From Reclinomonas americana ATCC 50394 (Eukaryota), in contig PS015367.1 in the NCBI GenBank assembly GCA_048213135.1, positions 33,231 to 73,036 of the forward strand: a stretch of DNA of 39,806 nt, read 5' to 3'. Position numbers and translations under genes: made by a program. The notes beneath the pieces are model-generated. The model saw nothing but the letters and a program-made list of their open reading frames with translations, was not told the origin of the DNA and ran no database searches. Positions 9,997 to 16,283 of the stretch are shown piece by piece (within the stretch, counting starts at the first letter, position 1; each line of letters starts with the position of its first letter).

Positions 9997-12900
9997 TCAG
10001 CAACGAATTCGTGGCTGCGCGAACCCACCCAGCTTCTCTCGCAGCTCGCGCACAACAGCGCACGCAGTCGCCGATGTGGGACGCACGTCATCGTACAGCG
10101 ACATGCACCTGATCGACACCGTCGGCAGATGAGCGCACCGACTTGCAAGACACTTCACAGCGACACGCAACTGCACCCCCAGCCGCATCATGCCTCGTGC
10201 CACCTCCACTGGCCACTCGCCAGCCACCACATCGGCCTCACCGACAGCATCCATCGTGTCCAGCGTCCGCTCCCATCGTCGTGCTTGAGGCGCGAGTTCG
10301 CGTGCATCGCGGCCAGTCAGCAACTGCAACACGATCAACCCAAAGGCGTACACGTCCATGGAGACGCGGATCTCGCCCGTTTGCAAGAAGAGTGGATCAA
10401 TATAGTACTTGGATCCCGCTTGTGTCATTGTGTGGCGGTGTGTCTGCACGGGAAGACGAGTGAATCCGAGGAAGATTCAATGGTCTGTTCCATAATTACA
10501 AACAGATCTGCTTTTCCTCACTCACTTCCAGTGATGATGGCCGAGATGTAAAACATAACAACTCCTGATTGTGCTCAATCTCTCACCCACTTATTTCCCT
10601 TGATCTTCTCACGACGCACTGTCACTCAGCACTCAACAGAATGGTAATCGTGATGAATGCAAGCGACGATACATCTTCGACCAACAACATCACTTGCTTC
10701 AGTGAAAACTCACCACGCCATTACTTATTCCACTCTCTTATTTTCCTCTTCAACGATTTCCGCTCGTCCCCCAATTCTCTTTGAGCTTCCTCTCCCACCG
10801 CGCCAATCCTCTGAAACGAGGCACCCTGGATACTGTCATTTCTGTATAATACATATCCCGCTCTCTCATTCTGCTTTCGAATTCGTTGCAGGCAACACAC
10901 GATTTCCTTTGCTCTTGCTCTTAACTTCCTCTCTCTCACCCTCTTATTCCGCTTCACCTCAAGCGATCACTTCTTATCGCCCAGCACACAATCTGCTCGT
11001 CTGCTTCACGTCTTCTCTCCCCCTCTCATTCTGCCTTCACTGCAAACGATCACTTCTCATCGGCCAACACACGAACTTCGTTGCTCTTCTGGCTCCTTCC
11101 ACTTCCTCTTGCACACTCTGCTCTCAAACAACAGTGACGACGACCAACACATACGCGACCTCCTCTGCACACACTTCTCCTCACCCTCCTCTGTTCCTCT
11201 CCTCTCAGACGAGAGCAACTACGTGCGTGACCAACACGTACGACAATTCATCTCCCTTCTTTCGACCTGCCACTCACCTCCCCCTTGTCAAAGACGCGCG
11301 CAATGCCAAAGTCGCCGAGTCGCGGTTCGCATCGATTGTCGAGAAGAACATTGGAGGGCTTGAGATCACGGTGCACCACATTATTCTTCGCTTGTTGAAA
11401 CCAGGCAGTGTGAGTTCGTGAGTGAGAGAGAGAGAAATATTCACATCTGATGTCAACGAAGCAACTCACCTGGTGCAAGAAGCTGATACCCTCGGCAATC
11501 CCGAGTCCAATCTGCACACGCTCCACCACCGTCAACGGCTCCATGCCGGGTTTCCTGTTCATCAACCGTACTTCCAGATCGTATCCACTGTGTATGTGGA
11601 GGAGATGAGAGAGAGTGAGAGAGCACGGATAACGGAATAACGCCGACTCTCTTCCCACTCACCGCATGGCTCGATACACCAAGCAGCGATGGATCGTGTC
11701 GCCTTCCTCATGCGACGCATATCCGAGCAGTGGAACAAGTCGCCGATGATGCAGTCGGCCGATGGTGCTTATCTGCGGGGTGCAGCACGAGTTAGCACGT
11801 GACTCGTTCACCTTTGGCCCGACTGTAATGCACACACCTCGGCCTCATACGACGCACTCGCCCATGGAGCCTTGCTGTCCAGTCGCTTGACAGCCACATC
11901 GTCATCGCCCAGCCAGCATAGGTACACTTCACCCTGACCGCCTTCGCCGGCCTTGTAGCGCTTGTGGAAGGACTCGGTAGTAAGGAGAACATCAGCCCAG
12001 CTATATTCGCGCAGACGAGATGGGTCCGACGCTGCAACAAACAATAAACGCGGATGAGGCAGAAAAACTATCAGCAAAGTCGAATGAAGACATTTGCCTC
12101 ACCGCGGAGGATGGCCAGTTCGCGTGCGAGATCAGCAGATCGTTGTTGCTCACTGGACAGAGCACTGCGTAGCGTGGTAATCGTCTCCTCATCGGCACTC
12201 GATTTGCGCTGCAGTTGAGCCACAGTGCTTTCGAATTCCAGTCGCTGCCGGTCTCTCTCTTCATGCGCCGTGTCGAGATCGCGTTCGAGTTGGGCATTGC
12301 GAGCAACAGAGTCGGCGAGCTGTGAAGCGAGTCGTCAACGAAGTACGCATCAGGAAGCTCGTCAGAGATGACAAGAGAGTGACTCAGCGAACTCACCTGT
12401 TGAAGCAGCGGAGCCGTTGCTATTCACCAACAAAGAGAGTGTCAACAAGATGGAGAAACGAAGAGGAAGAAAAGTATGGTCACACCTGGACTGCCGAGAT
12501 GGTCCAGCAACTCGGCTACAGTAGACTCGTCGCTGTCCCGAGCCGATTGAGCAGCCGTCTTGCCCACCTTGTCGACCATGGGAATGAGGTCGGGGAAGCG
12601 AGTGGCAAGCAGTCGCACAATAGCATCGTGACCCCCCTTGGCGGCATAATGCAGCGCAGTGGACTGCGGGCTGATCGCTCGATCATTGGTAACCGCTGGC
12701 ACCATCTCCGGCGGACACCGCTGCTTATCAGTCAGCAACCATTCTGCCACTTGAAGATGCCCACGAGCGGCAGCCGCCATCAGCGGTGTCCAGCCAGTGC
12801 AGTCGACGATGTGTGCGAGTTCTGGACCGACGCCGCTCTCCTCCCACAAGTATTGCAACACAGTGAGATGGCCATTCAAAGCGGCAATGTTAAATGCCGA

Positions 12901-15900: not shown

Positions 15901-16283
15901 CATCGCCGCTCATCGGCGAGCAGCCACTCCACCAACTGCAGATGACCTTCAATGGCAGCCATGATCAACGATGTCCAGCCCTCGTCGTCGACCATGTGCG
16001 CGAGTTGCAGACTGATGCCACTCCTTCCCCACAGATACTCCAGCACCGCGAGGTGGCCACAGGCAGCAGCCCAGTGAAAGGCCGACCACCCATCGTCCAT
16101 CTCCGTTCTCATCAGCAGAGTCTGTGCGCCTTCACACGTCACCAAGCGGCGCAGTGCACGCACATCACCACGCTGACCCATCTCCCAAGCCCTCTCGGGT
16201 GGAAGATTCGCGCTGCCAAAACAAAGATCGTCAATAACCATGCAAGAAAGACGGACAGCCAAACAAGGGAAATACAACCTCAT
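9997..16283 (-). CDS. Ankyrin-repeat / coiled-coil / RLK-Pelle (IRAK-like) protein kinase, about 22 exons
   Basis: Five ankyrin exons (16212-15674, 15410-14899, 14632-14097, 13801-13290, 13024-12486; G.TPLM.A...GHL and TALH.AA..GH motifs) are joined in frame by small linker exons. A coiled-coil exon follows (about 12321-12105). The kinase reads [104 protein letters not shown] and AGEWPVEVA...C...RP, all typical of RLK/Pelle kinases. The start ATG at 16283 is tentative. Confidence 0.9.
12486..16212 (-). repeat. Intragenic tandem duplication, about 1.6-kb unit present 2.5 times (ankyrin modules A-B-A'-B'-A'') including introns and microexons
   Basis: Homologous 14-nt exons at 15610-15597 and 14017-14004 (offset 1593) and 20-nt exons at 14830-14811 and 13222-13203 (offset 1608). 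The flanking introns also align. Confidence 0.92.

Follow-up and report, generated by a model that had tools for sequence, protein, structure and literature searches.

A predicted gene of Reclinomonas americana joins five tandemly duplicated ankyrin modules to an RLK/Pelle-like kinase

Introduction

What has shaped an array of five ankyrin (ANK) repeat modules that stands ahead of a protein kinase in the genome of Reclinomonas americana ATCC 50394, and does the variation among these modules reveal a receptor under diversifying selection? The array lies in a stretch of 39,806 nucleotides (assembly GCA_048213135.1, contig PS015367.1, positions 33,231 to 73,036 of the forward strand), which we analysed as a whole and refer to as the window; all coordinates below are counted from its first nucleotide. 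An initial annotation of this DNA had proposed an immune-like intracellular sensor kinase whose ANK modules diversify by duplication of exon cassettes and by selection on their binding surfaces. The reading that we favour, and hold to be moderately probable, is that of an ANK-kinase that arose by duplication of cassettes and was later homogenised in part by conversion. It would act as a scaffold or as a kinase with several inputs, and diversifying selection on it was not demonstrated. The evidence comes from the anatomy of the predicted gene, from the way in which identity is distributed along the duplicated modules, and from the rates of synonymous and non-synonymous change at the binding face.

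Results

Five ankyrin modules of similar build

Five similar ANK modules of about 175 residues each, numbered M1 to M5 in the direction of the gene, occupy the minus strand at 12486-16212. These are the limits given by the initial annotation, and they coincide with the end of the M5 exon and the start of the M1 exon; the peptide strings that it had quoted for repeats 2, 3 and 4 were likewise all found, as written, in the minus-strand translation. The Pfam model Ank_2 was matched by 5/5 modules with 73-81 bits against a cut-off of 27.3 (E 3e-20 to 9e-23), and the models Ank, Ank_3, Ank_4 and Ank_5 also match. When both strands of the window were searched by tblastn, exactly five module copies were obtained, all on the minus strand, and no relic or inverted copy was detected in introns by tblastn with the five modules over the whole window. 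Reading frames and framework residues are intact in all five, and 62 columns of their alignment are invariant.

One of the five modules, M4, was folded with AlphaFold2, the five modules serving as the alignment input. The model had a mean predicted local distance difference test score (pLDDT) of 92.9 and a predicted template modelling score (pTM) of 0.87, and its helices are paired where this was expected. In a Foldseek comparison of this model with the PDB, 500 of the 500 counted matches had E <= 0.001, and the best ones listed were designed ankyrin repeat proteins (DARPins) and other designed ANK-repeat proteins. The very best were DARPins of N3C size, with template modelling (TM) scores of 0.70-0.77 normalised to the query and 0.74-0.84 against standalone targets. 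The loops after repeats 2 and 3 are longer in the modules than in the DARPin, and their length differs by 5 residues between the two types of module described below, A and B. Each module is predicted from this model to be a complete, capped, five-repeat ANK domain of DARPin size, and we infer that the five domains are arranged as beads on a string rather than as one long solenoid.

We also looked for relatives of M4 in other proteins. A word-index search of longer proteins gave 12 matches with 28-35% identity, all of them generic ANK proteins. Among 1.84 billion representatives searched with HMMER, the 150 matches listed have 24-42% identity and are mostly giant ANK proteins; none of these 150 best-scoring relatives exceeded 42% identity, and neither search with M4 yielded a module family.

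Modules and kinase in one predicted gene

According to our model, the modules belong to a single intact gene on the minus strand, from about 16283 to 9997, whose 21 exons form a 4140-nt path without stops coding for 1379 amino acids. GT-AG borders are present at 20/20 modelled introns. Nineteen of these are 58-84 nt long; the remaining one (10444-11277) measures 834 nt, is of low complexity throughout and falls in the region of the kinase activation segment. Exon 1 (16279-16283) is tentative: it would consist of the ATG and two bases, followed by a 66-nt intron with a GT donor and an AG acceptor and by a phase-2 join to M1. An in-frame ATG near 16241, used without splicing, is the alternative start. 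An assembly gap (16797-17140), which (GT)n and (GA)n microsatellites adjoin, lies about 500 nt upstream of the start of the gene.

The module exons were placed at 15674-16212 for M1 (A type; Pfam Ank_2 E 8.8e-23; entered in phase 2 and left in phase 1), 14899-15410 for M2 (B type; E 3e-20), 14097-14632 for M3 (A type; E 3.1e-22), 13290-13801 for M4 (B type, the module that was folded; E 1.2e-21) and 12486-13024 for M5 (A type, the most diverged, with 54-61% amino acid identity to the others; E 1.6e-21). The donor at the end of a module exon (phase 1) and the acceptor of the following module exon (phase 2) are both conserved. Since a direct join of one module to the next would break the frame, we preferred a model in which micro-exons code for the linkers. 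Each inter-module region holds a pair of short segments, bordered by strong AG and GTGAG-type sites, that recur in conserved form from one duplicated unit to the other. Following A modules they measure 14 and 65 nt. After M1, the first of them (15597-15610) has AG/GT sites, leads from phase 1 to 0 and is conserved with its counterpart after M3 (14004-14017), and the second (15469-15533), also with AG/GT sites and leading from phase 0 to 2, aligns without an indel to its counterpart at 13873-13937. Following B modules the segments measure 20 and 41 nt, at 14811-14830 and 14696-14736 after M2 and at 13203-13222 and 13089-13129 after M4; the two 41-nt copies differ by one mismatch in 41, and the introns flanking the copy after M2 have a divergence (K) of 0.12-0.29. 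The splice sites are conserved at the 20-nt segment after M2 and at the four segments that follow M3 and M4. A further segment of 23 nt (12397-12419) would link M5 to the coiled-coil exon. The micro-exon model draws on strong splice sites that are conserved, on phases that fit together, on introns of regular length and on the placement of indels. It is likely to be correct, and part of the conserved inter-module stretches is probably micro-exon and not intron.

Four open reading frames of 149-288 codons run on the plus strand, antisense to the ANK exons (12181-13047, 13386-13979, 14206-14655 and 15783-16340). None of the four has a Pfam family, and we set them aside as genes; they are probably mirror open frames of GC-rich coding sequence.

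A kinase with complete motifs

After M5 the model continues with a coiled-coil exon (12103-12319), the AG acceptor of which was checked and for which coiled-coil-type Pfam matches are weak and all below cut-off, and then with the kinase. Five kinase exons were placed by homology and splice logic. The first (11838-12031) carries the Gly-rich loop (G.G..G) and the VAxK lysine, at residues 1083 and 1100 of the modelled protein. The second (11663-11772) and third (11470-11587) were located by tblastn with the proteins P0013 and P0014, their junctions being set by splice logic, and the fourth (11278-11385; Pfam Pkinase E 1.9e-10) contains the HRD catalytic loop (residue 1200) and the DFG motif (residue 1220). 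The fifth (9997-10443), beyond the 834-nt intron, codes for the C-lobe and ends with the stop codon. With these motifs all present, the kinase appears complete for catalysis and would belong to the RD-type Ser/Thr class.

When the kinase exons were compared with the PDB, 6/6 matches of the N-lobe exon were plant receptor kinases. The C-lobe exon had 15 matches at E <= 0.01, of which at least 12 are named as plant receptor-like kinase (RLK) or receptor-like cytoplasmic kinase (RLCK) and none is named for another kinase group. The structures matched by the kinase exons include LysM-RLK, SYMRK, BRI1, RIPK and PBL2. The Atlas clusters nearest to the C-lobe are of PK_Tyr_Ser-Thr, commonest in Streptophyta, and a search of long proteins with the C-lobe (10000-10443) gave 2 weak matches. 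The E-values of single exons against the PDB are weak (1e-4 to 1e-2), and RLK/Pelle-like is a fair description of the kinase rather than a proven family membership. The central anatomical proposal of the initial annotation, an intracellular ANK array coupled to an RLK/Pelle-like kinase, is borne out by the Pfam ANK matches of all five modules, by the kinase motifs and by the plant receptor kinases found in the PDB.

By Pfam, no death, TIR, NB-ARC, NOD or ROC domain was found in the parts scanned, namely the five modules, the coiled coil and six kinase-exon stretches. The modelled protein also has no hydrophobic segment of 19 residues (maximum Kyte-Doolittle score 1.5). With neither the death domain of Pelle and IRAK in the parts scanned nor a hydrophobic segment that could be the transmembrane part of an RLK, an RLCK-like cytoplasmic form remains, and the protein is predicted to be soluble and intracellular. 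No in-frame Met occurs between residues 960 and 1155, that is, until past the Gly-rich loop and the VAxK lysine. A kinase with an intact N-lobe could therefore not start on its own, as a separate gene would require.

As an observation apart, one weak match of the C-lobe, the protein P0014 (41% identity over 58% of the query), joins a kinase to a U-box.

Growth of the array by cassette duplication

Module copies follow one another at intervals of 786-822 nt, and a second, longer period measures 1577-1617 nt. By tblastn, M2 and M4 share 82% amino acid identity over 171 residues, M1 and M3 67%, M3 and M5 61%, and M1 and M5 56%, and identity between A-type and B-type modules is 54-58%. Spacing and pairwise identities together define an array of the form A-B-A-B-A, which points to an old split between the A and B types and then to tandem duplication of a two-module unit of about 1.6 kb. 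The regions between modules agree with one another in two pairs only, that between M1 and M2 with that between M3 and M4 (87%) and that between M2 and M3 with that between M4 and M5 (81%). The remaining 8 of the 10 comparisons gave 40-54%, near the means of shuffled controls (41-46%). The statement that even introns are conserved among the five modules thus applies to these two pairs and fails for the other comparisons.

A module exon taken alone is asymmetric in phase (2 to 1), whereas the cassette of three exons is symmetric (2 to 2). The cassette enters and leaves in phase 2, and its in-frame duplication is therefore possible. Exon-cassette duplication, the route of growth suggested at the outset, is supported by these phases and by the A-B-A-B-A layout: the array appears to have grown by in-frame copying of phase-compatible three-exon cassettes.

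Mosaic identity between the duplicated units

Identity between the two units is far from uniform and ranges from 57% to 98% in 60-nt windows. In the comparison of M2 with M4, synonymous divergence (dS) is 0-0.06 at columns 31-90 and about 0.6 at columns 91-150; in that of M1 with M3, it is 0.045 at columns 121-150 and 0.56-0.69 at columns 1-120. The contrast in dS between tracts is significant in both cases (Fisher p = 3e-5 for M2-M4 and 3.5e-4 for M1-M3). The longest identical runs, of 74 and 45 nt, had permutation P values of 0.001 and 0.003, nucleotide identity rises to 97-99% in sub-tracts about 60 codons long, and nearest-neighbour relations among the modules shift along the module length. 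Because synonymous divergence tracks identity, the mosaic points to gene conversion or unequal crossover, with breakpoints that fell within exons, and not to locally accelerated protein evolution or positive selection.

Over 387 aligned intron sites the units differ by 68 mismatches, a divergence of K = 0.20 (range 0.07-0.43), and the introns are thus no less diverged than the exons (0.14 and 0.25). The contrast drawn initially between a conserved framework with conserved introns and a changing surface does not stand as such: it arises largely from conversion tracts, in which synonymous and non-synonymous divergence rise and fall together. The youngest tracts also show no excess of surface change. 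M1 and M3 differ at columns 121-150 by 4 non-synonymous and 1 synonymous changes, and in the alignment, read by eye, none of the 4 non-synonymous differences is at position 13 or 14.

The rate of change at the binding face

The positions of the ANK repeat that are randomised in DARPins, which we take to be 2, 3, 5, 13, 14 and 33, were used to define the surface columns of the module alignment, and we checked their mapping with a DARPin aligned residue by residue and with the helix positions in the M4 model. All 26 surface columns vary among the modules, against 87 of the 153 others (Fisher p = 3e-6). With an alternative placement of the long loop between repeats 3 and 4, the counts are 25/26 and 88/153, and with internal repeats only they are 17/18 and 96/161; of the 16 columns in which at least four different residues occur, 10 are at the surface. 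The initial observation that module differences concentrate on the canonical ANK binding surface is therefore correct, and it holds under both other sets of columns. However, the surface positions are the least conserved ones in ANK repeats generally, which is the basis of their randomisation in DARPins (PMC8683736). A concentration of variation at the surface is therefore of little diagnostic value, and to find variation confined to these positions does not by itself argue for diversifying selection.

We therefore turn to the ratio of non-synonymous to synonymous divergence (dN/dS; Nei-Gojobori), bearing in mind that the sequences compared are paralogous modules of one protein and not alleles or orthologues, a comparison unsuited to showing ongoing diversification. 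Whole modules gave 0.28-0.50, non-surface columns 0.23-0.39, and surface columns 0.73-1.38 with a mean of 0.97 over all ten module pairs. The surface estimate is above 1 in four of the ten (M1-M2 1.09, M1-M3 1.25, M2-M3 1.38 and M3-M5 1.21), and codon bootstrap intervals include 1 in 7/7 pairs tested (for example, 0.68-2.27 for M1-M3 and 0.29-1.68 for M2-M4). Diversifying selection, which the initial annotation had invoked, is not supported by these values. They suggest that framework residues are under purifying selection, and they fit a surface that evolves at about the neutral rate, as relaxed constraint would give.

Discussion

Origin and possible role of the array

The history that we favour would run as follows. 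In-frame duplication of cassettes, each made of a module exon and two linker micro-exons, would have grown the array; an old duplication would have given rise to the A and B types, and a later tandem duplication of the A-B unit of about 1.6 kb to the order A-B-A-B-A. Gene conversion or unequal crossover would afterwards have re-homogenised some tracts, while purifying selection on the framework and a nearly neutral rate on the concave surface would have left five domains with different surfaces, folded separately on linkers of roughly 25-30 residues. The binding faces of the modules have thus drifted or specialised, and tandem duplication, conversion and relaxed constraint at the surface, all of them ordinary processes, account for the array on present evidence.

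Several points weigh against this account. Its biochemistry is prediction: the ANK domains would dock different partners or substrates, the coiled coil would bring kinase domains together, presumably as dimers, and the kinase, whose activity is predicted from its motifs, would phosphorylate the docked proteins. The splicing of the gene is likewise derived from sequence, and many alternative in-frame paths with a single GT..AG intron can be drawn between modules. All seven indels counted in the alignment of inter-module regions fall within predicted introns, an outcome with P of about 0.1 by chance and hence weak support for the micro-exons. Beyond the gap at 16797-17140 there may be extra 5' exons or modules, and the promoter may be incompletely assembled. 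As to the rates, G+C content at third codon positions is 0.60-0.70; dS may therefore be underestimated, which would bias dN/dS upward, and a surface ratio of about 1 is ambiguous in that it also fits a mixture of positively selected and constrained sites.

The possibility raised initially, that this is an immune-like intracellular sensor kinase whose ANK repertoire owes its diversity to duplicated cassettes, to recombination and to positive selection at the surface, draws on several of the same observations. Variation is concentrated on the canonical binding face, surface estimates exceed 1 in 4/10 pairs, the cassettes are phase-compatible and bear recombination tracts, and a best module identity of 42% among the 150 relatives listed fits a fast-evolving, lineage-specific gene. 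Yet the surface intervals exclude 1 in none of the seven pairs tested, the recently homogenised tracts are without an excess of surface change, and the 40 kb hold just five modules, on one strand, with no relic or inverted copy in the introns. The parts scanned with Pfam contain no NOD, ROC, TIR or death domain. Non-RD kinases are associated with pattern-recognition receptors, and the kinase here is of the RD type. Published precedents can be cited in its favour, in the ANK repeats of fungal NOD-like receptors (NLRs) and in the receptors of Ectocarpus (PMC4986451 and PMC3341825), but whole-module identity is below the 85% threshold of "high internal conservation" given in PMC4986451, and ANK surface positions are the least conserved in ANK repeats at large (PMC8683736). 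The tests applied here lend the immune-receptor reading no support, and we consider it unlikely. A wider version of it, slightly less likely still, would place the gene in a class of cytoplasmic receptor kinases peculiar to its lineage, in which DARPin-like cassettes were duplicated, converted and diversified on the concave face for intracellular ligands such as pathogen effectors; if true, that class would be an ANK-based counterpart of leucine-rich-repeat (LRR) receptor kinases and of the fungal NLR ANK arrays.

Rather unlikely, too, is the view that all five modules serve the same docking function redundantly, for avidity or spacing, and that their surface differences are neutral drift without partner specificity. 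A surface dN/dS of about 1 is what absence of constraint would give, and partial homogenisation by conversion agrees with it. All modules, however, keep their frames and the 62 invariant columns, and non-surface dN/dS is about 0.3 even where A and B modules have reached a dS of about 1; for modules kept intact so long, non-redundant roles fit better than redundancy. A more radical doubt concerns the gene itself, which rests on a model drawn from sequence: the ANK array and the coiled-coil kinase might be two genes, or the locus a decaying, unexpressed duplicate, and the M5 frame does continue, to a stop 13 codons past the proposed donor. This would leave the kinase without an in-frame start downstream of M5 from which it could be made intact. 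The 4.1 kb of modelled coding sequence moreover contain no stop or frameshift, and dN/dS well below 1 outside the surface indicates purifying selection, so that we regard an artefact of this kind as very unlikely.

Comparison with known systems

Well-known examples of kinases fused to ANK repeats are ILK, plant ANK-kinases, RIPK4/ANKK1 and DAPK, and repeat domains duplicated in tandem are familiar as well. The protein predicted here resembles these kinases and the Nek kinases of Giardia in having an ANK array fused to a kinase in a soluble protein. It differs from them in that theirs is one continuous array, whereas here five discrete, capped domains separated by linkers stand at the N-terminus, and in that its kinase is RLK/Pelle-like and not of the Nek, Raf-like or DAPK kind. 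In the expansion of Nek-ANK kinases in Giardia (PMC3218828), arrays are evolutionarily mobile, coiled coils occur in some members and localisation is affected by the ANK part. Mobile ANK arrays of kinases can thus have a role in localisation rather than in immunity. With the plant RLK/Pelle kinases, and RLCKs in particular, the gene shares kinase exons that find plant receptor-type structures, complete RD motifs and, as in RLCKs, the lack of a transmembrane segment. Plant RLKs and RLCKs carry LRR, LysM or lectin ectodomains or a short RLCK extension in place of the five ANK domains and coiled coil seen here.

The likeness to N3C DARPins lies in module size and in the capped five-repeat fold (TM 0.70-0.84), with natural variation at the positions that are randomised in the libraries. 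DARPins are designed, whereas the modules are natural and have longer loops, and the likeness is one of fold, not of descent or function. The exon-shuffled candidate receptors of Ectocarpus (PMC3341825) have phase-compatible exon units, recombination within the repeat region and variation on the predicted ligand face, as is the case here. These ROCO-LRR and NB-ARC-TPR (tetratricopeptide repeat) genes have one 24-residue repeat per exon, relic and inverted exons in introns, and large families subject to birth and death, and no shuffling was seen in that paper at LRR-kinase loci; our gene has about five repeats, a whole domain, per exon and no relics in the window. The ANK, TPR and WD repeats of fungal NLRs were delimited by more than 85% identity over at least 100 residues and come with polymorphism in repeat number and a NOD domain (PMC4986451). 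Hypervariable concave-surface positions and signs of concerted evolution, reported for the ANK repeats in that paper, are common to both systems; the best pair here, M2-M4, reaches 82% and the others 54-67%, against the fungal criterion of more than 85%, and the scanned parts have no NOD match. What is unusual in our gene is the packaging, with five complete, capped ANK domains in series, in-frame cassettes of three exons and an RLK/Pelle-like kinase. If orthologues or alleles were to give a surface dN/dS above 1 together with variation in module number, the gene would code for an intracellular receptor kinase based on ANK domains, of a type for which no description was found in the literature searched.

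Other features of the window

Elsewhere in the window, two plus-strand exons (25314-25964 and 26424-27164) match the Rsm22-type mitochondrial methyltransferases (Pfam PF09243, E 1e-4 and 4.5e-29). A search with them gave 5 matches, the best named being from two Closterium species, with 45-52% identity over 25-31% of the query. On the minus strand, 38917-39806 holds part of an ELO (GNS1/SUR4) fatty-acid elongase gene (exons matching PF01151, E about 3e-12), which continues past the end of the window. The window contains six assembly gaps, one being that upstream of the ANK-kinase gene (16797-17140) and the others lying at 18690-19193, 21256-21341, 23780-23799, 25104-25305 and 31432-31451. A plus-strand open frame at 19851-20753 has long proline runs and could be a low-complexity or formin homology 1 (FH1)-like segment of another gene.

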